Source: Candidatus Buchananbacteria bacterium
GTDB lineage: Bacteria; Patescibacteriota; Patescibacteriia; 2-01-FULL-39-33; JBAYJR01
Direction: 5' to 3'
Assembly: GCA_041665005.1 (NCBI GenBank)
Contig: JBAYJR010000002.1
Coordinates: 25,120-89,119, forward strand
DNA: 64,000 nt
In this document: positions 1-49,351 of the stretch, one piece after another
Numbering within the stretch: position 1 is the stretch's first letter
Layout: each line of letters starts with the position of its first letter
Translations under genes and position numbers: made by a program
Notes under the pieces: model-generated
What the model was told of the DNA's origin: nothing
Seen by the model: only the letters and a program-made list of their open reading frames with translations
The model's database searches: none

Positions 1-2415
1 TTGCCCAGCACCTTTAATCGAGAGTTGTTGTTGGTTACGGTGCCTCAGTATTTAATGGATAAAAACGAAAAAGAACAACCCAAAAATTTTAAAGAATTAA
101 TTGGGGTAGTGGAAAATTTTTATGCCAATTTGGGCGGACTAAAAGCGGCCGGTGGGTCAAAAGCTTTTTGGCACGGTCGGCATGATCATTTTTCTTTAGA
201 AATAGTAGTAGATAAAGAGGGTTTGATTAGTTTTTATATTTCTACTCCGCCAGAATTGCGACAATTTTTAGAACAGCAATTGCAAGCGCAATTTTCTAAT
301 GCCCAAATTGAAGAAGTGGCTGATTATAATATTTTTAATCCGAAGGGGGTAGTAGTGGCCGCGACTTTGGGTTTACAGCGTTCGCATATTTTTCCAATTT
401 TGACTTACGATAAAATTCAAAATGATCCTTTAAACGCTTTAACTAATTCTTTAAGTAAATTAGGCGGAGAAGACACGGCCGCGATTCAGATTATTGCGCG
501 GTCGGCGCATAAAAGCTGGCACAAGTTAAGTTACAAGGTTGCTTCGGAAATGCAACAAGGCAAAAAATTATCGGCGGCGGTCAGTGCGGCTCAAAAAAGT
601 GATTTAGCCAAATCTTTAGGCAAACTTTGGCAAGATTTTTTTCCGGCCAAAAAGGATTCCAGCCCTAAAGATTCTTATCGGCTCTCGCCGTTAGAAGAAG
701 AAATGGTTAAATTGATTGAGGAAAAAACTTCGCGGGCGGGTTTTGATGTTAATATTCGTTTATTGGCTTCGGCCCCGACGGCAGAAAAGGCAGAGATGAT
801 TTTACACAACCTGGCTAATGCTTTTTCGCAATTTGCCGGCTATCAATATGGCAACGGTTTTAAGGTAGTTATTCGGGGCACCAACAAAGGGGTAATTCGC
901 GATTTTATTTATCGTAATTTTGATCAACAAAATCAGTTTATATTAAATGCCGCCGAATTAGCCGGTTTATACCATTTTCCCTTACCTTCCACTACTACGC
1001 CCAACATTCGTTGGCTAAAGGCTAGAACCTTGGCTCCACCGCAAAATTTACCAACTGAAGGGATTATTTTAGGTGATAATTATTATCGGGGAGTTAAAAC
1101 AGAAATTCGGATGAAATTATCTGACCGGCGTCGCCATATGTATGTCATCGGCGGTACGGGTACGGGTAAATCTACTTTAATGGAAGAAATGATTAAACAG
1201 GATATTGCGGCCGGAGAGGGAGTTTGTGTAATTGATCCTCACGGCACTTTGATTGATCATATTTTGCCTTGCGTGCCCAAAGAACGGTTTGAAGATATTA
1301 TTTTATTTGATGCTTCAGATACCGAGTGGCCAATTGGCTTAAATATGCTAGAAGGAGATTCGCCGCAAGAAATGGATTACGTTAGTCAAGAAATGATTGC
1401 GATTTTTTATAAATTAGTCACTGATCCCTCCATGATTGGTCCGATTTTTGAACATAACATGCGTAATGTAATGTTTACTTTAATGTCAGATAAGGAAGAT
1501 CCTGGCACGATTGCCGATATTCCGCGGATGTTTACCGATCCGGTTTTTCAAAAATATAAATTAACCAAAGTGACCGACCCGATGGTACGAGCTTTTTGGG
1601 AAAAAGAAATGGCCAAAACTTCAGATTTTCATAAATCAGAAACTTTGGGTTACTTAATTTCCAAAGTCGGCCGGTTTGTGGAAAACACCATGATGCGTAA
1701 TATTATCGGTCAGCAAAAATCCGGTTTTAATTTTAGAGAAGTAATGGATCAAAAAAAGGTCTTGTTGGTTAACTTAGCTAAGGGGGTGACCGGAGAAATT
1801 AATAGTCAGTTGTTGGGTCTGATTATTATGTCAAAATTACAGATGGCAGCTTTGTCGCGGGCCAATGTACCCGAAGAAGAACGTTATGACTTTTTTTGTT
1901 ATATTGATGAGTTTCAAAATTTTATTACAGATTCCATTTCGGTTATTTTGGCCGAAGCTAGAAAGTATCGCTTAGATATGATTATGGCCCACCAATATAT
2001 TGGTCAATTATTTGGCGGAACTAATGTTGAAGGCAAGGCCGGTTCCAACAAAGTTAAAGACGCAATTTTTGGCAATGTTGGTACTTTGATTGCTTATCGT
2101 ATTGGTGTGGACGATTCGGAAATTATTGCCAAGCAAATGGCGCCGGTGGTTAATGAATATGATTTATTAAATTTACCAATGTACACTTCATATATTCGTT
2201 TATTGATTGATAATGCTGGGGCGCCGCCGTTTAATATGACTCATCGTCCGCCCAGTCCCGGCCGGCCCGAAACGGTTGTCGCTCTTAGAGAATTATCGCG
2301 CTTGAAATATGGTCAGCCTCGTGCTATTATAGAACAAGAAATTTTGCGTCGTTCGCAATTAGGCGAAGTGGCCAAAGAAGCGGCCGATATTGGTCGGGCC
2401 GAACCAACTTTATAA
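1..2415 (+). CDS. Type IV secretion/conjugation coupling-protein-like ATPase (VirD4/TraG/TrwB family, AAA-like domain); 5' end truncated by the window edge
   Basis: Walker A YVIGGTGTGKST followed by VIDPHG and a later acidic IDEFQNF box, the order and spacing typical of TraD/VirD4-type hexameric coupling ATPases. The ORF starts at base 1 with no upstream start, so the N-terminus is missing. Confidence 0.55.
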   Translation: MPSTFNRELLLVTVPQYLMDKNEKEQPKNFKELIGVVENFYANLGGLKAAGGSKAFWHGRHDHFSLEIVVDKEGLISFYISTPPELRQFLEQQLQAQFSNAQIEEVADYNIFNPKGVVVAATLGLQRSHIFPILTYDKIQNDPLNALTNSLSKLGGEDTAAIQIIARSAHKSWHKLSYKVASEMQQGKKLSAAVSAAQKSDLAKSLGKLWQDFFPAKKDSSPKDSYRLSPLEEEMVKLIEEKTSRAGFDVNIRLLASAPTAEKAEMILHNLANAFSQFAGYQYGNGFKVVIRGTNKGVIRDFIYRNFDQQNQFILNAAELAGLYHFPLPSTTTPNIRWLKARTLAPPQNLPTEGIILGDNYYRGVKTEIRMKLSDRRRHMYVIGGTGTGKSTLMEEMIKQDIAAGEGVCVIDPHGTLIDHILPCVPKERFEDIILFDASDTEWPIGLNMLEGDSPQEMDYVSQEMIAIFYKLVTDPSMIGPIFEHNMRNVMFTLMSDKEDPGTIADIPRMFTDPVFQKYKLTKVTDPMVRAFWEKEMAKTSDFHKSETLGYLISKVGRFVENTMMRNIIGQQKSGFNFREVMDQKKVLLVNLAKGVTGEINSQLLGLIIMSKLQMAALSRANVPEEERYDFFCYIDEFQNFITDSISVILAEARKYRLDMIMAHQYIGQLFGGTNVEGKAGSNKVKDAIFGNVGTLIAYRIGVDDSEIIAKQMAPVVNEYDLLNLPMYTSYIRLLIDNAGAPPFNMTHRPPSPGRPETVVALRELSRLKYGQPRAIIEQEILRRSQLGEVAKEAADIGRAEPTL

Positions 2416-2629
2416 TTTTATGATAAATACAAACAAGGAAAGTGAGCCAGTAGTTTTAGAGGAATATCCGGTGGTTTTTGGTTCCGATGGTAAGCCAGGC
2501 TTTCCGGAAGGTATTAAAGTTAATCCTCAAGACTATGTTAGTGAGTTAGGCGCGGATGGCAAATGGCATTGGGTTAAAAAAGATGCTAAAATAGAACAAG
2601 AAATGGAAGTTTGGGATGTGGGTAATTAG
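2390..2629 (+). CDS. hypothetical small protein (true start may be the ATG at 2420)
   Basis: Open frame directly downstream of the ATPase gene. No recognisable motif. Confidence 0.35.
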   Translation: MVGPNQLYNFMINTNKESEPVVLEEYPVVFGSDGKPGFPEGIKVNPQDYVSELGADGKWHWVKKDAKIEQEMEVWDVGN

Positions 2630-2668
2630 CATTTGGTCAAAAAATAAAATAACATAAAACAAAACAAA

Positions 2669-3256
2669 ATGAGTACCGACGATGATCAAAAAATGACCTC
2701 GGCTGATTCGGTTGTGGAACAACAAAAGAATCAGGCTTTAAAAAAGGTTTTATCCGATATTCGTGATAATATTGGTCAAGCTTTGTCGTTGTTGGATTCT
2801 GGTCAAGACGTGCCGGTTGAAAAATTAAAGGAATTATTGGGTAGCGGTAATAAATTGTCAGATAAAACTGAACCAGCCGAAGCGGCTAATGTAGTAGAAG
2901 GGGTTTTTGATGGCCAGCAGATGATTGGTTCTGACGGCAAACAGTATACGGTGCCGGCTAATTATGCTTCCAAATCTAAATTAGTAGAAGGAGATATTTT
3001 AAAATTGACCATTGCCAAAAATGGTTCTTTTATTTACAAACAAATTAGCCCGATCGTTCGGGAACGAGTAATTGGTACTATTGTTAAAGACGAAGATACC
3101 AGCAGTTTTTTTGTAGTTAATGACGAACGTAAATGGCGCGTCTTAACCGCTTCGGTAACTTATTTTAATGGGGACACCGGAGATGAAGCAGTAATTTTGG
3201 TGCCCAAAGAAGGCAAGAGCAAATGGGCGGCCATCGAAAATGTGATTAAGCAATAA
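2669..3256 (+). CDS. hypothetical protein
   Basis: 195-aa ORF with composition consistent with coding. No recognisable domain. Confidence 0.5.
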   Translation: MSTDDDQKMTSADSVVEQQKNQALKKVLSDIRDNIGQALSLLDSGQDVPVEKLKELLGSGNKLSDKTEPAEAANVVEGVFDGQQMIGSDGKQYTVPANYASKSKLVEGDILKLTIAKNGSFIYKQISPIVRERVIGTIVKDEDTSSFFVVNDERKWRVLTASVTYFNGDTGDEAVILVPKEGKSKWAAIENVIKQ

Positions 3257-3325
3257 ATGGGCGGAAAGTAGAAAGTTGTAAAGTTTAAAATCGTTATATC
3301 CCATTTTGGTGGGATTTTTAGTGTC

Positions 3326-3354
3326 TTGACAAATTAGATTATTTTTGTTAAGTT
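3326..3354 (+). promoter_or_regulatory. sigma70-type promoter (TTGACA-N17-TAAGTT) upstream of the 3386 ORF
   Basis: ttgaca at 3326..3331, 17-nt spacer, taagtt, then a GGAGGTG RBS 6 nt before the ATG at 3386. Confidence 0.5.
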
Positions 3355-3385
3355 TAAAACAAATCTTAAAAAATGGAGGTGTAGT

Positions 3386-3712
3386 ATGGGTGATCAAATA
3401 AGCAGCCTTAGTTTGTTGAAAAGAATAAAAGAGAAGGTACTATTGCCAAGAGACTTCTTTAGTCTGTTTGGTCATGAATTCATTAGCAATAAGGCTATCT
3501 ATCAAGACGTAGATAGCTACGAACATAATGGCGTAATTCAGAGTTGTGAGTCCGAAAGCTCTAGTTTTAGTATAGAGTTTTTGGACGAAGCCACGCAGGA
3601 GGTTGTAGTATTCTCAGAATACTACGAGGCTGTGACGATGTGTATTTCTGGAACTGACTGGTTAACCGTTAAGAAGGGTAACGGTGCCAGGATGAAAATT
3701 TTATTAGCTTAA
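3386..3712 (+). CDS. hypothetical small protein (108 aa)
   Basis: Strong RBS ggaggtg, consensus-like promoter upstream, and two rho-independent hairpins downstream. Confidence 0.6.
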   Translation: MGDQISSLSLLKRIKEKVLLPRDFFSLFGHEFISNKAIYQDVDSYEHNGVIQSCESESSSFSIEFLDEATQEVVVFSEYYEAVTMCISGTDWLTVKKGNGARMKILLA

Positions 3713-3721
3713 TAATAATTC

Positions 3722-3795
3722 AAGGTAGACTTTTTATAAGTCTACCTTTTTTATAAAATAAAAAGCCCGCGTTATAAATTATACGCGGGTTTATG
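3722..3795. terminator. two tandem rho-independent hairpins (bidirectional terminator region)
   Basis: ggtagac-tttttataa-gtctacc followed by a T-run at 3724..3752, and gcccgcgt-tataaattat-acgcgggt at 3764..3793. These serve the + ORF ending at 3712 and the - small ORF ending at 3801. Confidence 0.6.
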
Positions 3796-3800
3796 TTCTG

Positions 3801-3950
3801 TTACTGGATTGGGCAACAGTAGCACAAGATTAAAATTAACAATCCTATTAAAATGGTTATTGCGCCAACCACCATTAAAAAGCCTTTGAAGCCGGCGATG
3901 AATTTTTCTTTGGTTGTTTTTTCTCTTTCTGGAATCCACGAACTTGACAT
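3801..3950 (-). CDS. small single-pass membrane protein (~50 aa); replaces the listed 3772..4032 minus ORF
   Basis: Minus-strand ATG preceded by GGAGGAA 6 nt upstream. Translation MGMSSSWIPEREKTTKEKFIAGFKGFLMVVGAITILIGLLILILCYCCPIQ has a clear hydrophobic helix, and a terminator hairpin lies immediately downstream. Confidence 0.4.
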   Translation of the reverse strand: MSSSWIPEREKTTKEKFIAGFKGFLMVVGAITILIGLLILILCYCCPIQ

Positions 3951-4272
3951 GCCCATTTTTGATTCCTCCTAAAATTGTAAAATTTTGGTTATTATCCGTC
4001 CTTAACTTAACAAATCTTTGGTAATTTGTCAATAATAACTTGATCGGGTGGAGTTGATCGACTTTAAATAATAATCATTCTAATCAATTTGTCTGATAAG
4101 CGAGCAAAGGTAAAATCGGTAGTTTTTTAGTAGTCAGTTTGGCTGTGGATAAGGTGGTTTTAGCCTCTAAAATATTGGCCTTTTGTGATTCTTTGCGGGT
4201 CGGAGTTAAAAGTGGTAAAATATAGGTGAAAACAAACCTAAAAATCAATTGACCGGCTAAAGGGCTAATTTC

Positions 4273-5847
4273 ATGTCTAATACCTTATATCGTAAATATC
4301 GTCCGCAAACCTGGTCCGAAATGATCGGGCAAAATCACATTAAAGTGACCTTGCAGCACGAATTAGAAACCGATAAGTTGGCGCACGCTTACTTATTTTG
4401 TGGTCCGCGCGGATTGGGTAAAACCACCGCGGCCCGGTTGTTGGCTAAATCTTTAAATTGTACCAATCGCGGCCAAGGTAAAAGTGAACCTTGCAACGAA
4501 TGCAAGGCATGTCAGGAAATTATGGCCGGCCACGCCATTGATTTGATAGAAATTGATGCCGCTTCACAAACCGGAGTGGATAACGTGCGGGAAAATATTA
4601 TTCAAAATTCTCGCTTTACACCTAACGTTGGAAAATATAAAGTTTTTATCATTGACGAAGTGCATATGTTGTCCACTTCGTCTTTTAATGCCCTGTTAAA
4701 AACTTTAGAAGAACCTCCGGCCCATGCGATTTTTATTCTATGCACCACCGAGGTACATAAAATTCCCGAAACGATTATTTCTCGTTGTCAACGTTTTGAT
4801 TTTAAAAGAGTTAGCCAGGGTGATCTGGTTAAGTTGTTAGAAAAGATTTGTGTTCAGGAAAATCGTGAAGTGCAAACCTCGGTGCTACAAGAAATTGTCC
4901 GGCAGTCCGATGGTTGTGTACGCGACGCCGAAACTTTACTCGGTAAAATTTTATCACTAGAAGGAAAAATTACCAAAGAGGTGGCGGAAATAATTTTACC
5001 GCATTCAGATTTTAATTTAGTCATAGAATTGTTGCAAAATTTAACGGCCAACCAAACCGTGCCCGCTTTATTTTTAGTTAATCGTTTAGTGGAAGAAGGT
5101 TTAGATCTGACTAGTTTTGCTCAAGATGTTATTGAAATTTTACGTAAAATTTTACTAATTAAAAATAGTGGAGAGTTAGGAGATTTGGCTGGTGAGTTTG
5201 ATCCCGAAACCGAAAAAGAATTAGTAAAAATTTCAGATATTTTAACTTTAGGACAAATCGTGGAATGGTTGAATATTTTTATTAATTTAAAACAAGAATT
5301 ACGTTATAGTCAAATTGCGCAATTGCCCTTAGAGTTAGCCGTAGTTAAGCTGACTTCTGGGGTAACCGAACCAAACAAAGCAATTACTCCCGTAGCCAGT
5401 AAGCCGGCTGAGATTAAAAAAAAGACTAATCCGGAACCGGCTAAAGCCACCCCGGAGCCAGTTTTGAGTGAAGAGGTTGAAGTCACTAAAGGCGCGAAAG
5501 CCAAACTTTGTTTAGCGACCATCAAGGAAGAGTGGCTTAATTTGTTAAATAATATTTTAGAGCGCAATTATCCTTTGGCCGCCTTGCTAAAAACTTCTGA
5601 GCCGTTAAAATTTAGTGATAATTGTTTAGAAGTGGGGATAAAGTATCAATTTTACGCTGATCGCTTGCATGATCGCAAGCATCAACAAATTTTAAATGAG
5701 GCCACTAAAGCAGTTTTTGGCTCCGCTATCAACTTTAGAGGGATAATTAAGGCCGAAATTACTCCTTATGGTCAAGAGGAGGTGCGACCAGTTGATAATT
5801 TAGCCAGCCAAGTATTAGAAGTAATGGGCGGGGAAGTAGTAGAATAA
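4273..5847 (+). CDS. dnaX: DNA polymerase III subunit gamma/tau
   Basis: N-terminus YRPQTWSEMIGQNH, Walker A GPRGLGKTT, the Zn-binding CNECKAC box and IIDEVHML are all textbook DnaX motifs. Confidence 0.95.
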   Translation: MSNTLYRKYRPQTWSEMIGQNHIKVTLQHELETDKLAHAYLFCGPRGLGKTTAARLLAKSLNCTNRGQGKSEPCNECKACQEIMAGHAIDLIEIDAASQTGVDNVRENIIQNSRFTPNVGKYKVFIIDEVHMLSTSSFNALLKTLEEPPAHAIFILCTTEVHKIPETIISRCQRFDFKRVSQGDLVKLLEKICVQENREVQTSVLQEIVRQSDGCVRDAETLLGKILSLEGKITKEVAEIILPHSDFNLVIELLQNLTANQTVPALFLVNRLVEEGLDLTSFAQDVIEILRKILLIKNSGELGDLAGEFDPETEKELVKISDILTLGQIVEWLNIFINLKQELRYSQIAQLPLELAVVKLTSGVTEPNKAITPVASKPAEIKKKTNPEPAKATPEPVLSEEVEVTKGAKAKLCLATIKEEWLNLLNNILERNYPLAALLKTSEPLKFSDNCLEVGIKYQFYADRLHDRKHQQILNEATKAVFGSAINFRGIIKAEITPYGQEEVRPVDNLASQVLEVMGGEVVE

Positions 5848-6661: not shown

Positions 6662-6735
6662 TGGGAGATCGTCTAATGGTAGGACGCCGCGCTCTGGACG
6701 CGGTAATTCTGGTTCGACTCCAGGTCTCCCAGCCA
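6662..6735 (+). tRNA. tRNA-Gln (anticodon CUG), CCA encoded
   Basis: Manual fold. Acceptor stem UGGGAGA/UCUCCCA with the U1-A72 pair and G73 discriminator characteristic of bacterial tRNA-Gln. D stem GUCU/GGAC. Anticodon stem CCGCG/CGCGG with loop CUCUGGA, giving anticodon CUG. T stem UCUGG/CCAGG with loop UUCGACU. 3' end CCA. Confidence 0.85.
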
Positions 6736-6745
6736 ATAGTCTAGA

Positions 6746-7231
6746 ATGTTTTTTATTAATATGATTAATCAACAACAACTTTGCGAATTTTTAGTTAAAG
6801 CGAAAAAAGTCACTTACGCGGCTGGGGCCGGAGCGCAAACTATAAACGAAAGTGACAAATCAAAAACTTTAAATTTTACGGAAGGCGATTGGCACTATCA
6901 GGATAATTATTTTGGTGGCGAACCGTTCGGTGGTCGGGAAGTAGTATTTTTTAAAAATCAGCCAGTGTATTTAATGGTTTATTATGGTCGGGTCGAAGAG
7001 GTAGTTACAGATTTTGAACCAGTCTATCAGATTTTACGCCAAGCCTTGTCTTTAATACCAGACGCTCAGCCGTTTCGTGGGCCGGCGCAATATCAAACTG
7101 GCGATTATGTTTATATTAATAATTATCAGGGTGAAGTGGATAATTTTTTTGGTGAGGAAAAAATTAGTTATCAGGGAGCGGTAGTTTATCAAGCCCGCTA
7201 CGCCGGCGGCTTAGTTGACCAGAAAAAATAA
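6746..7231 (+). CDS. hypothetical protein; its last ~45 nt plus the downstream spacer are duplicated at 13235..13286
   Basis: 161-aa ORF with no recognised motif. The 3' end is part of the 52-bp repeat. Confidence 0.5.
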   Translation: MFFINMINQQQLCEFLVKAKKVTYAAGAGAQTINESDKSKTLNFTEGDWHYQDNYFGGEPFGGREVVFFKNQPVYLMVYYGRVEEVVTDFEPVYQILRQALSLIPDAQPFRGPAQYQTGDYVYINNYQGEVDNFFGEEKISYQGAVVYQARYAGGLVDQKK

Positions 7232-7237
7232 TTTTTT

Positions 7238-7741
7238 ATGACGAAAGCAGTATTTCAAAAAATAATTAAAGATTCTAAGCAGGAAGTAAAAAGGCTTGCT
7301 AATGAAAATGGCTGGTCATGGTTTTATAATATGCACCAAAAGGAAGTAATAAAATATGCTGAAAAGCTATTAAATAAATATAAAAAAGCAGATAAAGAAA
7401 TAGTTTTAATTTCCTGTTGGTTGCACGATATTGCACACTATTATGCCAAAGATGGCAAGGGAATTTTAAAAGTTAAAAAGTCGCATCATATTAACGGCGC
7501 TAAAATTGCGGAGCAATTGTTAAAAAAATACAATTTAGACAAGGAGGAAATTAGTAAGGTTAAAAATTGCATTTTAAAACATCGGAACTGTCAGCCGTAT
7601 TTAGCAGAAACGTTGGAAGAAAAAATTGTAGTGGCCGCTGATACTTTGTCTCATTTCGGTAGTATCTTTTACTTTACATATTTTAAATTTCATCCCGGTC
7701 ATTCTCTAGAAAGAATGGTAAAAGATGATTTAAAAAAATAG
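7238..7741 (+). CDS. HD-domain phosphohydrolase (paralogue of 13284..13841); possibly frameshifted at an A7 run
   Basis: WLHDIAHY...KHRN HD motif, and alignable with the 13284 ORF over most of its length. The frame continues in +1 after aaaaaaa at 7732..7738 for a further 44 codons, to about 7860. Confidence 0.7.
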   Translation: MTKAVFQKIIKDSKQEVKRLANENGWSWFYNMHQKEVIKYAEKLLNKYKKADKEIVLISCWLHDIAHYYAKDGKGILKVKKSHHINGAKIAEQLLKKYNLDKEEISKVKNCILKHRNCQPYLAETLEEKIVVAADTLSHFGSIFYFTYFKFHPGHSLERMVKDDLKK

Positions 7742-8022
7742 CGAGAGATTGGCGTGACCTGCAAATTTTACCCGAAGCAAAAAAGATGGTTGAGACAGAA
7801 TATCAGACTATAAAAAGGTTGTTAGAGAATTATAATAAAAATGGGGCTAATTTAAACTAACGTCGTTAAGCGATCTCCATTAAGGTAATAGATTAGCAGT
7901 TGACTATTTATAGTTGTTGTCGCTTCAAGAGAGATCTTTGTTTTTGGACATAAATAAACTACTATGTTAATATTCTATCGTTACCTGAATAGTCGTTAAT
8001 TTGGCAAAATAAATATAATATT

Positions 8023-8970
8023 ATGAATACAAAAAAAATTTATGAGCTTATCGTTTTGGCTGGCATACAAGCAGATTTGCGCGGCAGTAAAAGAGTAAAA
8101 CAACACCTAAACAGGCTTAATGAAAAATATAAAAAGTTGTCTACCAAAGAAAAGATGGAGTTTGACAAGGAGAGTCTTAGTAATCCATACACAGATTCCC
8201 GTATTTTAAACACCAATGGCAGGGAAATAAAAAGAATTATGGCTGGAATCGATATTGATGGCTCCGAACTTCTTTTGGCTAAACACATAGGTGGCGTTGA
8301 TTTGGTTGTGGCACATCATCCTCAGGGCTTAGCCTTGGCGGGACTACATGAAGTCATGTTAATGCAAGCAGAAATATTAGCCGACTACGGCATCCCTATT
8401 AATATAGCGCAGTCACTTATAAAATTACGTATTTCTGAGGTTAGTCGTAGTTTGTCGCCGGCCAATCATAGTCGTAGCGTAGATTTTGCTAAAATTCTTG
8501 GGCTCGATTTTATGTGCGTTCATACTCCGGCGGATAATTTAGCCGCTAGTTTTTTAGTAAAGTTGTATGAAAAGAAAAAAAATAGTCTAGAAACTGTTGA
8601 AGATTTAATTGATCTCTTGAAGACGATACCAGAATATAGTAATGCGGTGAAAATAAAGAACGGCCCCAAAATTTTTGTTGGGTTACCTGAAAATTATTTA
8701 GGCAAGGTGGTTTTTACGGAAATCACTGGTGGCACTTCTGGATCAAAAGATATTTATGAAAAAATGTCTCATTATGGAATAGGCACTATAGTTGGCATGC
8801 ACATGAGTGACGAACATCGTCAGGAGGCAGAAAAATACCATATTAACGTAGTTATTGCGGGCCATATGTCTTCCGATTCTTTGGGTATGAATTTGTTTTT
8901 GGATAAAATAGAAAAAAGAGGAGTAGAAATAATCCCTGTTTCTGGTTTTATAAGAGTTAAAAGATTTTAA
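8023..8970 (+). CDS. NIF3-like (DUF34/YqfO family) dinuclear-metal-centre protein, tentative
   Basis: DLVVAHHPQG and a C-terminal VVIAGHMSSD resemble the NIF3 His-rich metal-binding motifs. Low-GC gene. Confidence 0.4.
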   Translation: MNTKKIYELIVLAGIQADLRGSKRVKQHLNRLNEKYKKLSTKEKMEFDKESLSNPYTDSRILNTNGREIKRIMAGIDIDGSELLLAKHIGGVDLVVAHHPQGLALAGLHEVMLMQAEILADYGIPINIAQSLIKLRISEVSRSLSPANHSRSVDFAKILGLDFMCVHTPADNLAASFLVKLYEKKKNSLETVEDLIDLLKTIPEYSNAVKIKNGPKIFVGLPENYLGKVVFTEITGGTSGSKDIYEKMSHYGIGTIVGMHMSDEHRQEAEKYHINVVIAGHMSSDSLGMNLFLDKIEKRGVEIIPVSGFIRVKRF

Positions 8971-9012
8971 AAATTGTGCCTAAAGATTCATTTTTGTTGT
9001 ATTTTAGTAAAT

Positions 9013-9040
9013 TTGACGTTTTTTGTAAGAAGAGTATACT
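9013..9040 (+). promoter_or_regulatory. sigma70-type promoter TTGACG-N16-TATACT upstream of the small-peptide ORF
   Basis: ttgacg at 9013..9018 and tatact at 9035..9040. Confidence 0.5.
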
Positions 9041-9072
9041 AATAATAGCTAAGTTATATCTAATTTATAACT

Positions 9073-9177
9073 ATGAAAAAAATTAAGAAAAAGAGTTTGA
9101 CTCAGGGGACTGTTGAATTAGTAAAATTGGCATGGATTAAAGGTAAAAAGTTCAAACAGTCAATGGTTTGCAATTAA
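9073..9177 (+). CDS. 34-aa Lys-rich peptide MKKIKKKSLTQGTVELVKLAWIKGKKFKQSMVCN; candidate RiPP precursor
   Basis: Short ORF with its own promoter and a perfect terminator hairpin, directly upstream of the methyltransferase/radical-SAM operon. There is no obvious SD sequence, which lowers confidence. Confidence 0.4.
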   Translation: MKKIKKKSLTQGTVELVKLAWIKGKKFKQSMVCN

Positions 9178-9180
9178 AAT

Positions 9181-9213
9181 AAAAAAAGGCTTATTTAATT
9201 TAAGCCTTTTTTT
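9181..9213 (+). terminator. rho-independent terminator/attenuator after the peptide ORF
   Basis: aggctta-tttaatt-taagcct followed by T7. Confidence 0.7.
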
Positions 9214-9219
9214 GCTCCT

Positions 9220-10131
9220 ATGAAAGAACAAAAAGAGATAAGTTTTTTTGAATATTTTGGTGTAGCCAAAAAATATATTGGTAATATTACCTTGGTTTTT
9301 GAGTTTTTAAAAAATCAGGAGGGGATAGGCTATAATATTTTTAAAAAGGGCAAGCTTATAAGGTATTTATCATCTCATTATTTAGTTAGAGATAGAAAAA
9401 AGTTAAAAAATAACAAAACTTGGCTGTGCTACAAAAAAGATTTTAATAAAAAAATTGTTGTTGGGTATCAAGGCTTATGGTTTTTTTGTCGAGAGACAGT
9501 TTGGAGCCCATCGGTTGACGCTGTTTTTATGATTGATGCAATTAATAAATACAAGAGCCTTAGTATAAATAATTTTTCTTCTATATTGGATTATGGTTGC
9601 GGTTCGGGTGTTGTTGGTATATCGTTGGCTAAAAAAAGTAAAAAGGTAAAAGAATTGAGCTTGGTGGATGTTAACGATTCGGCATTGTTCTGCTCTTTAA
9701 TAAATTGTATCGGTAATAATTTAAAAGTAAATTTTAATATAGCCAACCATTTAAATAAAAAGAGATATGATCTCGGTTTGGTTACGCCTTATTATTTTCC
9801 CATTGAAAAGCGTGACTATTTAGATTCTAGGCAGGCCATGCAGGCCATTGTAAAAGCCGGCAAGGACTCCGCCATAATGATTAATGATTTAAGCAAGATT
9901 TGCAGTGAGGTATTTTTTGTTTATTCGTCTATAACAGAAAAAGTTTTTAGAGAAGAGCTAAGTGTTAAATATAAAGATGTTTGTTATATGGATGTACCTT
10001 TTTCTTTAGGTGATAATGTCAGTAGTAACTCGTTGGTCGGAGCCGCCGCTGAAAATAATTTGTTAATTTTTAAAAAGGATTCTCAATTTAAATTTTGGCA
10101 TAGAATATATATGGCTAAAATTATTAGTTAA
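9220..10131 (+). CDS. class I SAM-dependent methyltransferase (methyltransferase small domain, PrmC/RsmC-like)
   Basis: LDYGCGSGVVG glycine-rich SAM motif I, followed by an acidic LVDVND motif II. Confidence 0.7.
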   Translation: MKEQKEISFFEYFGVAKKYIGNITLVFEFLKNQEGIGYNIFKKGKLIRYLSSHYLVRDRKKLKNNKTWLCYKKDFNKKIVVGYQGLWFFCRETVWSPSVDAVFMIDAINKYKSLSINNFSSILDYGCGSGVVGISLAKKSKKVKELSLVDVNDSALFCSLINCIGNNLKVNFNIANHLNKKRYDLGLVTPYYFPIEKRDYLDSRQAMQAIVKAGKDSAIMINDLSKICSEVFFVYSSITEKVFREELSVKYKDVCYMDVPFSLGDNVSSNSLVGAAAENNLLIFKKDSQFKFWHRIYMAKIIS

Positions 10132-10134
10132 TAT

Positions 10135-11457
10135 ATGAAAGAATCTATTATTTGCAAAGAAATTGTTCCGGGGTATTTAGTTGTTTATAATAAAAAAACT
10201 AACGAAACATTCCTAACTAAGTCGTTAGAAGTTAAAAATTTTTCTCAAAAAGATTGGGATATCTTTTTTAATAAACAACCAAAAAAAACGGCAAAGAAAT
10301 TCGACGCCCGATCTTTTTTTACAACGGTCGTTCTTAATACTACAGAATCATGTAATCTAAGATGTCGTTATTGTTCAAGATATAAAGAACAGTATAAAAA
10401 AGAAAAGACAATGCCCGATGTTATTATGTTTTTGGGTGTTGAAAGGGCTATCGAGCACGCTAAGTTGATCAAGGAAAGGGTTGTTGTGCAATTTCACGGT
10501 GGTGAACCTTTATTGTTTTTTACAAAAATTAAGTCTGTTTTAGAGAGTTTTTCTAAAAAAGATTTAAAAAAGATAGATTTAAGAATACAAACAAACGGAA
10601 CTTTAATTACGGATGATATTTTAAAATTTTGTCTTCTTTATAATATTCATTTAGGTATTTCGGTAGATGGGCCGCCGGAGATAAATGGCATTAATCGTCG
10701 ATTTGCAGACGGAACTCCAATTTCCGAAGTTTTAGATAAAAAATTAAAACAGGTTAGAAAGTATTTACCAAATAATCACATAAGTTGTTTGGCTGTTTTA
10801 ACTCAAGCAAACGTTAATAACGCCAAAAAAGTTTTGGATTATATTTATAAAAATAAAATTAATGATGTCTCTATTTTACCAATTTATCCAGATTTTACCA
10901 ATTGTTTAAATACCTCGGATCACATAATTCCGAGAACAGAAAAAATGGTTGAATTTTCTAAATTGATTTTTGATTTATGGTTAGAAAGATTAAGAAAGGG
11001 GCAGTTTGTTTCTATACCAAATTTTCAAATTTGGTTTTGGAACTTTTTAGGCATTAATGCTAATTATATAACTAACAATACTTCTTGTGGTGTTGGACAA
11101 AGTATGATTTTTATAAATACTGATGGGGAAATTTATCCCTGTGGGCCGTTCTCCTATGAAAACAAAATGTCTTTCGGAAATATAAGAAAAATTAATTTGA
11201 TTGATATAAAGAAAAAAAAGGTATTTAAGATGTTTAATAAAAGGAGTACTAAAAATGTTGATGATTGTCGAGATTGCGCTCTACAGAGTATCTGTATGGG
11301 TGGGTGCCCAGCTAATAGTTACCTCAAAGAGAAGTCAATTTATAAGAAAGATCCATTTTGTGAATATTGGCAGGGGATAATTGAATATATTGTTAAAAAT
11401 ATCATAGACGATCCTGATATTTGTAATTTAATTCCAGATTTTTCAATTCGTTTGTAG
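10135..11457 (+). CDS. radical SAM enzyme with a C-terminal SPASM domain (peptide-modifying/anSME-like maturase)
   Basis: CNLRCRYC (CxxxCxxC) radical-SAM cluster motif, and a C-terminal CRDCALQSICMGGCP (Cx2Cx5Cx3C) SPASM motif. Confidence 0.85.
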   Translation: MKESIICKEIVPGYLVVYNKKTNETFLTKSLEVKNFSQKDWDIFFNKQPKKTAKKFDARSFFTTVVLNTTESCNLRCRYCSRYKEQYKKEKTMPDVIMFLGVERAIEHAKLIKERVVVQFHGGEPLLFFTKIKSVLESFSKKDLKKIDLRIQTNGTLITDDILKFCLLYNIHLGISVDGPPEINGINRRFADGTPISEVLDKKLKQVRKYLPNNHISCLAVLTQANVNNAKKVLDYIYKNKINDVSILPIYPDFTNCLNTSDHIIPRTEKMVEFSKLIFDLWLERLRKGQFVSIPNFQIWFWNFLGINANYITNNTSCGVGQSMIFINTDGEIYPCGPFSYENKMSFGNIRKINLIDIKKKKVFKMFNKRSTKNVDDCRDCALQSICMGGCPANSYLKEKSIYKKDPFCEYWQGIIEYIVKNIIDDPDICNLIPDFSIRL

Positions 11458-11461
11458 TTTT

Positions 11462-12490
11462 ATGAAAAATATAAACTCCACCAATCTTTCTGGTAAAACA
11501 GAAATTGATCTATTATTGACTACTAGGTGTAATTTGGCTTGCAAACACTGTTTGTATGTTGATCATAAAAAGTTTGTTGATTTAGATGATAAAATATTGA
11601 AGATTATTTTAGATAAACTGCCAGTAAACGGCTCAGAAGTTCATTTGTTAGGCGGCGAACCGTTATGTCGCACCGATATTGTTAAAATTGTAGACAAGAT
11701 AAATAAAAAACAATTGAATCCCCAAATATTAACCAATGGCTTTGCTTTGACTGATAGTTTATTAAAAAAATTACACCAAGCTGGTTTGAAAAAAATTGGT
11801 TTTAGTCTTGATGGCACAAAAAGCGTCCATAATTTCATAAGGGGGAAAGGCGATGTTTTTCAACGGGTAATTAGGGCTATAAAAGCTATCAAAAAGTTAG
11901 GTTATATTCCCAAAATCAGTTCAGCGGTTCATCAGCACAATAAAGACAGTATTTTAAAATTAATTCCTTTTCTTGACAAACTGGGCGTGCAAAGAGTATT
12001 AATTGAACATTTTCTTCCGATTAACGGGGGAACACAATTGGCGGGAAAAAATTTAAATAAGAAAGAATGGCAAGCTTTTATTAAAGATATAAAAGTTTTA
12101 AAAAAAATAAATAAATTGTCCATTAGAGTTGCTGTCCAAAAAGTTTTTTATGATAAACAGGAGGCAAGAGATTTTTCTTGTGTTTGTAAAAACTTAAAAT
12201 ATCCAATTGTTGACTCTTCAGGAAATTATTATCCTTGCATAATTTATTACGCCGCCGGTTTTCCAGCTGGTAATTTAAATAAAGATACGTGGGAAAAAAT
12301 TCACTCAGTTAAGTCTATTAGTAGTTACATAAAAAAAGTTAATAAAATAACGGGCCATGTAAAAGTTAACAAAATTAAGGTTTTGTGCCCGGCAATTAAA
12401 TTATTGGTGGTAAGAAAAGAATTGGATTTATCGAGTATATCAAATGTCAAAGGAACTATTGGTTGTTTTCACAAAGTAGAGTTGTTATGA
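11462..12490 (+). CDS. radical SAM enzyme (second, shorter; partial twitch/SPASM-like C-terminus)
   Basis: CNLACKHC CxxxCxxC motif near the N-terminus, LLGGEP glycine motif, and a C-terminal CVC...PC cysteine set. Confidence 0.8.
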   Translation: MKNINSTNLSGKTEIDLLLTTRCNLACKHCLYVDHKKFVDLDDKILKIILDKLPVNGSEVHLLGGEPLCRTDIVKIVDKINKKQLNPQILTNGFALTDSLLKKLHQAGLKKIGFSLDGTKSVHNFIRGKGDVFQRVIRAIKAIKKLGYIPKISSAVHQHNKDSILKLIPFLDKLGVQRVLIEHFLPINGGTQLAGKNLNKKEWQAFIKDIKVLKKINKLSIRVAVQKVFYDKQEARDFSCVCKNLKYPIVDSSGNYYPCIIYYAAGFPAGNLNKDTWEKIHSVKSISSYIKKVNKITGHVKVNKIKVLCPAIKLLVVRKELDLSSISNVKGTIGCFHKVELL

Positions 12491-13206
12491 AAGCCAGTAT
12501 AAAATATTATCAATATTCAAAATCAAGTTGGGGTAAAAGGAGGGGGGCGCTTATTTTTAGGCAGATTAAAAATTTACAATCAGAAAAAATTTTGAAATTA
12601 GATAATTTAAATATTATAGAACTTGGTTGTGGCGTTTGTACTGTCTCAAAAAAGTTTATTACAAAAAATAATAAAATTATCGCCGTTGATAAGAATTTGG
12701 AAATGTTGGTGTTAGTTAAAAATAGCCGGATTAATTTGGTAAACTATGATGTTTTGGATTTTTTAAAGAAAAACAAAAAAAAGTTTGATTTGATTATTTG
12801 TAATAATATTATTGAATATATAACTGATAAAGAAAGGTTTATGGGCTTATTGAATAAGGCAGTTAAAAAGAATTCTATTCTTTCATTGGTAGTTATTAAT
12901 TTAAATTATGAAGTTCTAAAAAGATTTAGGAATAATGAGTGGCGAGCTGGGATTTCATTGTTAAGAACAAGAAAATATTATAGTAATAATTTTAAATGCT
13001 CCTTTAATTTAAAGAGTATAGAAGAGTGGAAGATATTTTTAAATAGATTTGGATGGAAGATCGTTAATTGGCACGGGGTCGGCTTGATTGATAGCGATCT
13101 ATACAAAGATTCACATAAAGGAATGGACTATGAGCTAGAGTTATTAAAAAAATCACCTTATCGTGATCAAGCGGTTTTAACCCATTTTGTGTGTAAGATT
13201 ATGTAA
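12487..13206 (+). CDS. class I SAM-dependent methyltransferase
   Basis: IIELGCGVCTVS motif I and ADKNLEML motif II. The ATGA start overlaps the stop of the upstream radical-SAM gene. The ORF track begins at 12463 but the ATG at 12487 is the likelier start. Confidence 0.75.
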   Translation: MKASIKYYQYSKSSWGKRRGALIFRQIKNLQSEKILKLDNLNIIELGCGVCTVSKKFITKNNKIIAVDKNLEMLVLVKNSRINLVNYDVLDFLKKNKKKFDLIICNNIIEYITDKERFMGLLNKAVKKNSILSLVVINLNYEVLKRFRNNEWRAGISLLRTRKYYSNNFKCSFNLKSIEEWKIFLNRFGWKIVNWHGVGLIDSDLYKDSHKGMDYELELLKKSPYRDQAVLTHFVCKIM

Positions 13207-13234
13207 AATGATAAATTTTATTGGTAAAAGTTTG

Positions 13235-13286
13235 TCAAGCCCGCTACGCCGGGGGCTTAGTTGATCAGAAAAAATAATTTTTTATG
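13235..13286 (+). repeat. 52-bp repeat, copy 2 (copy 1 at 7189..7240), 50/52 identical
   Basis: tcaagcccgctacgccgg(c/g)ggcttagttga(c/t)cagaaaaaataattttttatg. Both copies end in the start codon of an HD-domain gene. Confidence 0.85.
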
Positions 13287-13841
13287 GATTTAATTCAAGA
13301 GGTAAAAAACTTTGTAGAAAGCGAATCTTTAAAAGCCGATAGTAAATATGGGGCGGAGCCTTTTTATTATCATTTTACTTCGGTGGTTGAATATGCCAAG
13401 CGGCTAGCAGTAGAATTAGGAGGCGATGAAGAAGTAGTAACTATTGCCGGTTGGTTGCACGATATTGGTTCAATTATGCATGGTCGGGCTGATCACCATT
13501 TAACCGGCGCTAAAATTGCCGAAGAAAAATTAAAGGCCTGGGGTTATCCGGCCGAAAAAATCGCTTTGGTTAAAAAATGTATCTTAAATCATCGAGGCTC
13601 GCAACAAAATGATCGTCATAGCTTGGAAGAACAAATTGTGGCCGAAGCCGATACGATGAGTAATTTTGATAATCTGGCCGGTCTGTTTAAAGCCGCTTTG
13701 GTTTATGAAAATTTAAATCAAGGCGAAGCCAAAGATTCAGTTAGACAAAAATTGGAACGCAAATATAAAAAACTTCATTTTGCTAAATCTCAAGAATTAA
13801 TTAAGCCAAAATTTGAGGCCGCGATGTTATTGTTAAAGTAG
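13284..13841 (+). CDS. HD-domain phosphohydrolase (paralogue of 7238..7741)
   Basis: WLHDIGS...HH...NHRG HD motifs. Confidence 0.8.
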   Translation: MDLIQEVKNFVESESLKADSKYGAEPFYYHFTSVVEYAKRLAVELGGDEEVVTIAGWLHDIGSIMHGRADHHLTGAKIAEEKLKAWGYPAEKIALVKKCILNHRGSQQNDRHSLEEQIVAEADTMSNFDNLAGLFKAALVYENLNQGEAKDSVRQKLERKYKKLHFAKSQELIKPKFEAAMLLLK

Positions 13842-48889: not shown

Positions 48890-49351
48890 TTATCCAAGTA
48901 AACCGATAAGCCGAATTCTGTCAGCCTAATTAAAGGCGGGTGATTATCTCTCTAGCCCCAACATTGCTGTTGGAGTCATGCTGCCTACCTTATTTGGCAT
49001 TGCACCGGGTAGGTGTTTTCCACGGCTGTCATCACTGACAGTCCCGCGTGGGCTCTTACTTTGGCCTAGCCGAAGCTTGGCTTATCCCGCGCATAGGCGG
49101 GCCCACGATTTCAACCTTACTTGTCCCACCATCGGTGGGATTTAGTCCACAAGGGACTCAAGCGGTATATTTTCTGTTGCACTTTCCCTGGGCTTGAAAT
49201 TTGCAGAAGTCTGCAGGACTTCTATAAACTTTGCTCCCGGTCGCTGTTAGCGATTACCTCTGAATTCCAATCCTAAGATTGAAAAACGGTGTTCGGACTT
49301 TCCTCAATGCGCTTTAACACGCACCGCAATCACCTGGTTTACTTGGATAAA
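48889..49351 (-). ncRNA. rnpB: RNase P RNA (bacterial type)
   Basis: On the minus strand, GAGGAAAGUCCGAACACC near the 5' end is the universally conserved P4 5' strand, and ACAGAAUUCGGCUUAUCGG near the 3' end is the P4 3' strand. The P1 stem pairs UAUCCAAGUAAACC with GGUUUACUUGGAUA. The region is GC-rich relative to its surroundings and has no ORF. A TTGACT-N17-TATGCT promoter lies at 49355..49383 on the minus strand. Confidence 0.85.

Follow-up and report, generated by a model that had tools for sequence, protein, structure and literature searches.

A candidate RiPP precursor gene with a six-residue core upstream of a radical SAM/SPASM maturase in Candidatus Buchananbacteria

Does the open reading frame (ORF) of 34 codons at positions 9073..9177 of a Candidatus Buchananbacteria contig encode the substrate of the radical S-adenosylmethionine (rSAM) enzymes whose genes follow it? 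The question was raised by a stretch of 64,000 nucleotides (contig JBAYJR010000002.1 of assembly GCA_041665005.1), referred to as the window. A preliminary description of this DNA had proposed the ORF as the candidate precursor of a ribosomally made peptide with post-translational modifications (RiPP), belonging to the downstream rSAM/SPASM operon. This central claim was supported by linkage of the ORF and conservation of its core in all 12 distinct orthologous loci, which formed the comparison set after duplicates had been set aside. With high probability, 9073..9177 is a translated gene for the RiPP precursor of the downstream enzymes, and judging from the sequences the peptide is very probably the substrate of the linked rSAM/SPASM enzymes. 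RiPP systems of the rSAM/SPASM kind are well known; the present family is a new and rare one among them, having a minimal core of unusual kind together with a HemK-like methyltransferase of its own.

Conservation of the peptide gene

The features on which the comparison was based are:

9073..9177, + strand: predicted precursor peptide gene, 34 amino acids, MKKIKKKSLTQGTVELVKLAWIKGKKFKQSMVCN (translation; orthologous ORFs 5' of every examined rSAM/SPASM orthologue)
9073..9177, residues 1-28, + strand: Lys-rich leader of the predicted precursor (translation)
9157..9174, + strand: predicted core codons Q29-S-M-V-C33-N34 (alignment, synonymous codon variation, profile search)
10135..11457, + strand: predicted rSAM/SPASM peptide maturase, the system-defining enzyme (Pfam Radical_SAM and SPASM)

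The peptide contains a single Cys in penultimate position and ends with M-V-C-N-stop. Orthologues of the maturase form a group of 34 clusters with 38-100% identity, after which the identity falls sharply to 28%. In the 12 loci, which belong to widely differing bacteria and have maturase identities of 38-83% and locus GC contents of 0.31-0.57, an ORF of 33-41 codons was found in every case on the same strand just 5' of the methyltransferase or maturase gene, as expected of an rSAM/SPASM precursor. Several of these ORFs were missed by the source annotation. Another small ORF as conserved partner of the maturase, the possibility that the preliminary description had held against the peptide, occurs in none of the 12 loci. 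The C-terminal end, whose conservation in homologous loci had been named as a check, reads QxMVCN in ten of the loci; one further locus has QPFLCN and another MPAVCH:

L002: ...KFKQSMVCN
L177: ...KFKQPMVCN
L004: ...KIAQSMVCN
L171: ...KVPQAMVCN
L176, L005, L166, L174, L167: ...QPMVCN
L173: ...KQPFLCN
L169: ...EMPAVCH

The pattern of substitutions is that of a selected protein. All motif codons vary synonymously (CAG/CAA, TCA/TCT/TCG, CCA/CCC/CCT, GTT/GTC/GTA, TGC/TGT, AAT/AAC, TAA/TGA), and the pN/pS ratio of the peptide gene is 0.28 between the window and its closest relative, L002. In the alignment of 13 peptides the last 27 columns are free of gaps in every sequence, so that C-terminal indels are lacking, and conservation does not reach beyond the last 4-6 residues. 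Together with the maturase, the core is conserved across divergent genomes, the leader being variable. Cys33 (position -2) is the sole invariant residue of the alignment and is also constant in 17 clusters from the databases. The last residue varies: two lineages end with ...VCH and one database entry with ...MVCK (P0160, P0155; L169, 220-345), the penultimate Cys being kept. The leader contains a hydrophobic alternating stretch, V/I-x-L/I/V-K/R-L/M, whose spacing from the C-terminus is constant and free of gaps. This stretch looks more strand-like than helical, the latter having been assumed in the preliminary description. For the two most divergent loci, L173 and L169, the leaders are acidic and the ...C[NH] end is kept.

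The 17 clusters were detected by a profile search of 5.8 billion proteins, which was run with a family member of 40 amino acids as first sequence. All of them end with [MF][VL]C[NHK], and their lengths are 33-45 amino acids, except for one entry of 62 amino acids with an upstream-extended start. Using phmmer with the 34-residue peptide, a query too short for remote detection, only the L002-type peptide and two low-complexity Lys-rich matches were obtained from 1.8 billion cluster representatives. As negative control, about 160 distant rSAM/SPASM paralogue loci (at most 36% best-segment identity), collected by contig scans with generic rSAM motifs (QFHGGEP, CNLRCxYC), were scanned in six frames, and no ORF ending with MVCN-stop was found among the matches listed. 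A tblastn search of the maturase against plasmids gave no orthologue; all matches were below 27% identity.

Because the ORF is conserved upstream in 12 of 12 loci, with synonymous codon changes, a gap-free alignment and the clusters of the profile search, it is regarded as a real, maturase-linked gene. These comparisons indicate that 9073..9177 is a genuine gene under protein-level selection, strictly linked to the maturase, with its core at the C-terminus. The exact sequence of 34 residues is absent from a collection of 15 billion proteins; the gene is therefore unannotated. Gene callers left it out in this metagenome-assembled genome (MAG) and in the identical contig L001. No match was found for the peptides in Pfam and NCBIfam. 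Rfam searches of the whole window at the gathering threshold and of 8800..9400 at a permissive E-value gave only sub-threshold, terminator-driven matches, and a known small RNA or leader family was rejected for the ORF region on this ground. None of the models in Pfam, NCBIfam and Rfam describes the peptide. A literature search for the motif (QSMVCN, QPMVCN, SMVCN, PMVCN, MVCN) with related SPASM and candidate phyla radiation (CPR) terms returned nothing relevant, supplementary tables of genome-mining studies lying outside this search.

The maturase and the accessory enzymes

In the maturase family the CX3CX2C motif and the complete SPASM motif with seven Cys are invariant. By family profile, the nearest solved structures are the anaerobic sulfatase maturating enzyme anSME (4k36, E 8.5e-48), CteB (7e-44), ChlB and TigE. 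An AlphaFold2 (AF2) model of the maturase (pLDDT 88.6) showed the same fold neighbours and additionally SuiB, SkfB and PqqE. The top Foldseek match was CteB (E 4.6e-23, query-normalised TM-score about 0.7), and the best target-normalised TM-score, 0.83, was reached with anSME. Residues 5-46 of the model form a beta-beta-beta-alpha-alpha arrangement, the element order of a RiPP recognition element (RRE) minus its third helix. The nearest solved structures are mostly peptide maturases.

The best NCBIfam model for the maturase was PapB with 165.4 bits (cut-off 340), and SCIFF reached 119 (425), CcpM 115 (500) and the anSME model TIGR03942 155.7 (349.45). Since the curated models score far below their cut-offs, the reaction of the maturase is not transferable from a known family. 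By these comparisons the enzyme would lie between the Cys oxidase anSME and the thioether formers CteB and PapB, equidistant from both. A thioether, suggested in the preliminary description as a sactionine-type crosslink, is a tentative candidate for the product, and the larger share of the probability lies elsewhere.

Three further enzymes are encoded around the maturase:

9220..10131, + strand: HemK/PrmC-like methyltransferase with TPYYFP instead of NPPY (Pfam MTS)
11462..12490, + strand: predicted second rSAM enzyme, accessory, no SPASM match (Pfam; orthologues in L002, L171, L176 and L167)
12487..13206, + strand: predicted second class I SAM methyltransferase, accessory (Pfam; orthologues in L002, L171 and L176)

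For the last of these ORFs an alternative TTG start exists at 12463. The peptide, the HemK-like methyltransferase and the SPASM maturase occur together in 10 of 12 loci, as judged by blastp and gene position. On the same basis the second rSAM enzyme was assigned in six loci and the second methyltransferase in five. A Radical_SAM gene and a methyltransferase gene of L177 were placed with the accessory enzymes by their equivalent position only.

The HemK-like methyltransferases form a family of 14 clusters, so far found only on contigs of this system; for several of these clusters the listed longest-contig sizes equal those of rSAM orthologues. This confinement strengthens the idea of the preliminary description that the methyltransferases act on the peptide. 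Two motifs, VWSPSVDA and LDxGCGTG, are kept HemK-like, the former at what we take to be the position of the HemK PRPETE motif, and NPPY is replaced by [TA]P[YF]Y in all 14 members. A true PrmC/HemK N5-glutamine methyltransferase was rejected for 9220..10131, as NPPY is lacking and the scores are below the cut-offs (37.4 against 199 for TIGR03534, 35.1 against 115.5 for TIGR00536); the similarity is at the level of the fold only. The AF2 model of the enzyme (pLDDT 92) had its top match in the Protein Data Bank with AerE (7rc5, E 6.5e-9), a weak match with a TM-score of 0.45 and 13% identity. AerE is a PrmC-like enzyme which N-methylates Asn side chains in proteusin RiPPs (PMC9060474).

In L173 and L169 the maturase gene is not adjoined by a gene for the HemK-like methyltransferase. 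L169 is also the sole locus whose peptide has neither Gln at position -6 nor Asn at position -1, and this single case hints at an amide side chain as target of the methyltransferase. In the three most divergent loci an Amidohydro_2 gene (PF04909) adjoins the maturase gene (L167, 4117-5082; L173, 6373-7362, - strand; L169, 1626-2408, weak match). Amidohydro_2 and the HemK-like methyltransferase may be alternative accessory enzymes. Genes for B12-binding rSAM enzymes (class B, typically C-methyltransferases) were observed in some loci (L166, 7634-12020; L174, 467-1784), in L166 with two glycosyltransferase genes downstream as well. These additions suggest further tailoring variants of the same core.

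Comparison with known systems

The ranthipeptide and sactipeptide systems (CteA-CteB thermocellin, PapA-PapB freyrasin, SCIFF-ScfB) are among the closest known ones. In common with these, a short precursor gene lies directly 5' of the rSAM/SPASM maturase gene, Cys is the key residue of the core, and a strand-rich N-terminal domain precedes the rSAM core of the enzyme. CteB is the top Foldseek match and the second-best sequence profile match, and PapB the best NCBIfam model. In contrast to these systems, the present core has only about six residues with one penultimate Cys and shows no Cx3D/E, CxxxT or multi-Cys pattern. The maturase, far below the PapB and SCIFF cut-offs, does not score as a thioether maturase, its N-terminal domain is roughly half as long as a complete RRE and gave no PqqD match, and the cluster also encodes a second rSAM enzyme and the dedicated methyltransferase of the HemK type.

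In the same way as proposed here, anSME, the best profile match among solved structures, targets a single Cys; it abstracts the Cbeta-H and makes formylglycine. However, its target C/S-x-P/A-x-R is located inside a folded sulfatase, whereas in the present peptide only one residue stands between the Cys and the stop codon. In addition, anSME lacks the N-terminal domain of about 60 residues of the present maturase and has no dedicated small precursor gene. A substrate of an anaerobic sulfatase maturase was rejected, since the motif is lacking and TIGR03942 is below its cut-off.

Mycofactocin (MftA/MftB/MftC), pyrroloquinoline quinone (PQQ) and pantocin A are similar in that a short precursor is conserved at its extreme C-terminus only, where an rSAM/SPASM enzyme acts. 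There is likewise no exporter, and some of the present loci contain hydrolase, glycosyltransferase, methyltransferase or short-chain dehydrogenase/reductase (SDR) genes. Unlike the mycofactocin precursor the present peptide ends with MVCN and not with GVY, and neither a separate MftB-like RRE protein nor a peptidase of the MftE type was found. MftC (TIGR03962) is absent from the 25 best families of the SPASM enzyme, and the second rSAM enzyme scores 62.9 against a cut-off of 265. With no MftC among these 25 families, no MftB and no GVY-ending precursor, a mycofactocin system was rejected.

In proteusin tailoring (AerD/AerE, PoyD/PoyE) an rSAM enzyme and a PrmC/HemK-related class I methyltransferase are combined in a RiPP cluster (PMC9060474). 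AerE is the top structural match of the methyltransferase model, and the present core has a near-invariant Asn and Gln. The proteusin systems differ in several points: the motif TPYYFP does not contain N or D, the structural match is weak, the present precursor has neither a nitrile-hydratase-like leader nor a long repetitive core, and the second rSAM enzyme shows no PoyD-type epimerase among its 25 best NCBIfam matches.

Promoter, translation start and terminator

The promoter-like site, the ORF, the hairpin and the lack of a Shine-Dalgarno (SD) sequence that the preliminary description had listed were all found again. The elements around the peptide gene are:

9013..9040, + strand: putative sigma-70-like promoter TTGACG-N16-TATACT (10 of 12 consensus positions; equivalent in L002)
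9052..9072, + strand: AGTTATA-N7-TATAACT, a 7-bp inverted repeat of the predicted 5' untranslated region (UTR), abutting the peptide ATG (hairpin in the predicted RNA fold)
9181..9213, + strand: intrinsic-terminator-like hairpin A7-GGCTTA-loop-TAAGCC-T7, likely a partial terminator between precursor and enzyme genes

In the AT-rich DNA of 7500..11500, 27 promoter-like sites were counted (17.6 +/- 3.8 expected), and the match at 9013..9040 ties for the top score among them. L002 has TTGACG-N17-TATAAT (11/12, identical -35 hexamer) at the equivalent place, the rest of the intergenic DNA being unalignable. The inverted repeat at 9052..9072 has no conserved counterpart in L002. It might block access to the start codon or act as operator.

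The terminator-like hairpin consists of aGGCTTA-N7-TAAGCCt with a T-run at 9187..9213 and extends to a bidirectional A7/T7 stem of 13 pairs (9181..9213) with -14.8 kcal/mol in context. Loose terminator-like sites are as frequent as in shuffled sequence. The hairpin is also present in L002, where every stem position is identical and the loop differs at two positions. The stop codon of the peptide lies about 3-4 nt before the hairpin base, and the ATG of the methyltransferase, a start backed by alignment with 13 homologues, 6 nt past the T-run. As this leaves no room for another promoter, the enzymes would be expressed by read-through. In lantibiotic and subtilosin operons, a partial terminator separating the precursor gene from the modification genes is an established feature. 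The promoter-like and terminator-like elements described at the outset are present here, and both recur in L002; the terminator layout is lineage-specific and clear in only four of the 12 loci.

No SD sequence precedes the peptide ORF, which had been put forward as a caveat. An SD-like motif was found for seven of the 53 long ORFs of the window. Because 46 of 53 are without one, a missing SD is normal for this genome. GGAG-type sites precede the orthologous peptides in L005, L166 and L167. The absence is therefore true, but its weight as an objection is gone. Among the seven SD-bearing ORFs, a perfect AAAGGAGG occurs in four, upstream of 28439 (-), 35067, 39155 and 51290 (-), and A/T motifs, for example TAATTTTT, precede many other starts in the window. 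Translation initiation in this genome seems to be of two kinds, independent of an SD in general and with a very strong SD for a few genes.

Proposed function

From these data the following course is proposed. The precursor would consist of the Lys-rich leader (1-28) and the hexapeptide core Q-S-M-V-C-N (29-34). Its gene would be transcribed from its own near-consensus promoter, most transcripts ending at the hairpin and a read-through fraction supplying the enzyme genes. The maturase may bind the leader, probably via its small N-terminal beta3-alpha2 domain, and carry out radical chemistry at or beside the invariant penultimate Cys. The likeliest reactions would be a thioether from Cys-S to a neighbouring carbon, with Asn34, Val32 and Gln29 as candidate acceptors, or a Cbeta oxidation as in anSME. 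Subsequently the two methyltransferases, one of them HemK-like, and the second rSAM enzyme would tailor the short core; for the HemK-like enzyme the side-chain amide of Asn34 or Gln29 is a plausible target.

The comparison adds a missed gene to the Candidatus Buchananbacteria genome and defines a compact, directly testable RiPP system of precursor, SPASM maturase and dedicated HemK-like methyltransferase, to which a second rSAM enzyme and a second methyltransferase may be added. With its six residues and a single invariant Cys, the predicted core would be a very tractable substrate for an uncurated SPASM branch. The changed HemK-like motif, TPYY for NPPY, points to a possible new peptide methylation.

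Alternative explanations

Several observations weigh against the peptide as RiPP precursor. The ORF of 34 codons is, on its own, within chance, and the sampling is limited to 12 loci; scans of genome and metagenome contigs with generic rSAM motifs gave no orthologues among the matches listed. Residues 1-68 of the maturase have no PqqD or RRE match in Pfam, and all curated NCBIfam maturase models stay far below their cut-offs. The hairpin with T-run is clear in four loci, weak in two and absent in six. A conserved leader protease, exporter or immunity gene was not found across the 12 loci, which would be unusual for a secreted RiPP.

If the ORF were non-coding, the stretch could belong to a small RNA, or it could hold the 3' UTR of the NIF3-like gene 8023..8970 together with that gene's terminator. 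An ATG ORF of at least 34 amino acids arises in 10% of dinucleotide shuffles of the intergenic stretch of 249 nt, an SD sequence is lacking, the gene callers for the MAG and L001 skipped the ORF, and the region folds better than shuffles (z = -2.8). This z-score, however, is accounted for by the terminator, and no Rfam family reaches the threshold. The peptide and the regulatory elements, each within chance alone, are lifted beyond it by the cross-locus comparison: the protein is conserved with synonymous changes in 12 loci whose flanks, including the NIF3-like gene, are unconserved, and enzyme identities of 38-83% exclude assembly copies of a single sequence. A chance ORF is thus extremely improbable. 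A real but merely regulatory ORF would be a leader whose translation governs the terminator and the SAM-consuming operon, for example by Met or Cys sensing, the peptide being no substrate. The order of short ORF, terminator and operon is the classical attenuator layout, the stop codon is close enough to the hairpin base (3-4 nt) for a terminating ribosome to interfere, Met and Cys codons are present in the core of an operon using SAM, and there is a weak, sub-threshold and terminator-driven Rfam likeness to Thr_leader. But tandem regulatory codons are lacking, and the terminator, clear in 4/12, is absent in half of the loci; in L169 the stop of the peptide lies 1 nt ahead of the maturase start. 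An attenuation leader was rejected on these grounds. Over GC contents of 0.31-0.57 the C-terminal amino acids are conserved and the downstream RNA is not, and the fixed spacing from leader to Cys would be superfluous for a mere sensor, so that attenuation is very unlikely. A further reading takes the peptide for a small basic helper of the enzymes, for example a regulator, a chaperone or a partner that binds nucleic acids, and not for their substrate. The peptide is very Lys-rich and resembles small ribosomal proteins, and methyltransferases of the HemK/PrmA type normally target translation factors and ribosomal proteins. Yet the basic part is poorly conserved and becomes acidic in L173 and L169, where the ...C[NH] end is retained, and an invariant single Cys at a fixed position beside a SPASM maturase is the signature of a substrate. 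We consider such a partner highly improbable.

A different end product is conceivable within the precursor reading itself. As a sub-case, the peptide would be a disposable carrier whose last two to six residues are converted and released: two rSAM enzymes together with two methyltransferases would turn the C-terminal Val-Cys-Asn (or -His) into a small metabolite or cofactor that contains sulfur and is probably intracellular. Scaffold-type precedents are mycofactocin, PQQ, pantocin A and 3-thiaglutamate. Only the last 4-6 residues are conserved, yet up to four tailoring enzymes are present, and the host is a CPR bacterium with reduced genome. Because no exporter is conserved, a cofactor-like role comes into consideration; an immunity gene and a dedicated leader protease are likewise missing from the 12 loci. 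The variable hydrolases (Amidohydro_2 in L167, L173 and weakly L169; M42 peptidase in L004) fit small-molecule processing, and further genes of this type are the SDR oxidoreductases in L004 and L005 and the glycosyltransferases and B12-rSAM enzyme in L166. On the other hand, no accessory hydrolase is universal, and within the repeat-bounded segment of the window described below there is no peptidase, the S51 peptidase being located outside and not conserved. The maturase models of mycofactocin and PQQ do not fit, the best matches of the SPASM enzyme being peptide cross-linkers and anSME, and many bona fide RiPP clusters are without protease or exporter as well. A carrier of this kind is therefore possible but rather doubtful. 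If true, this would add to the pathways of the mycofactocin/PQQ type a new one that moves between phyla and extends even to a CPR bacterium with reduced genome.

Genomic setting and mobility

The genes for the NIF3-like, HD, S51 peptidase and SPOUT proteins near the peptide gene were rejected as cluster members, since they are not conserved in the other loci. A direct repeat of 58 nt, 95% identical, was observed at 7183-7240 and 13229-13286, the second copy following the first at a distance of 6046 nt. Both copies run up to the ATG of a gene for an HD-domain protein (7238..7741 and 13284..13841), and these proteins share only 40% identity. Enclosed by the repeat are the first HD gene, the NIF3-like gene and the entire cluster of peptide and enzymes, with no integrase inside. 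The segment has a GC content of 0.30-0.33, compared with typically 0.35-0.40 for most of the window. Either an att-like island boundary or a segmental duplication of old date may account for the repeat.

In L004 the cluster is flanked on one side (1-4507) by ParA-like (CbiA), DUF3408, NikA-like and relaxase genes and on the other (10297-11388) by a tyrosine integrase gene (Arm-DNA-bind_5, Phage_int_SAM_5). This setting looks like an integrative conjugative or mobilisable element, and the system is probably mobile. The GC range of 31-57%, the mobile genes of L004 and the repeat-bracketed segment of low GC content point to horizontal spread and to some selectable function.

Two RNA genes of the window were also noted. 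A tRNA-Gln(CTG) is located at 6662-6735 (+), just 5' of a DUF5680 gene. A class A RNase P RNA was detected at 48891-49345 (-) with 168 bits; because its 455 nt compare with a model of 367 positions, it carries insertions.

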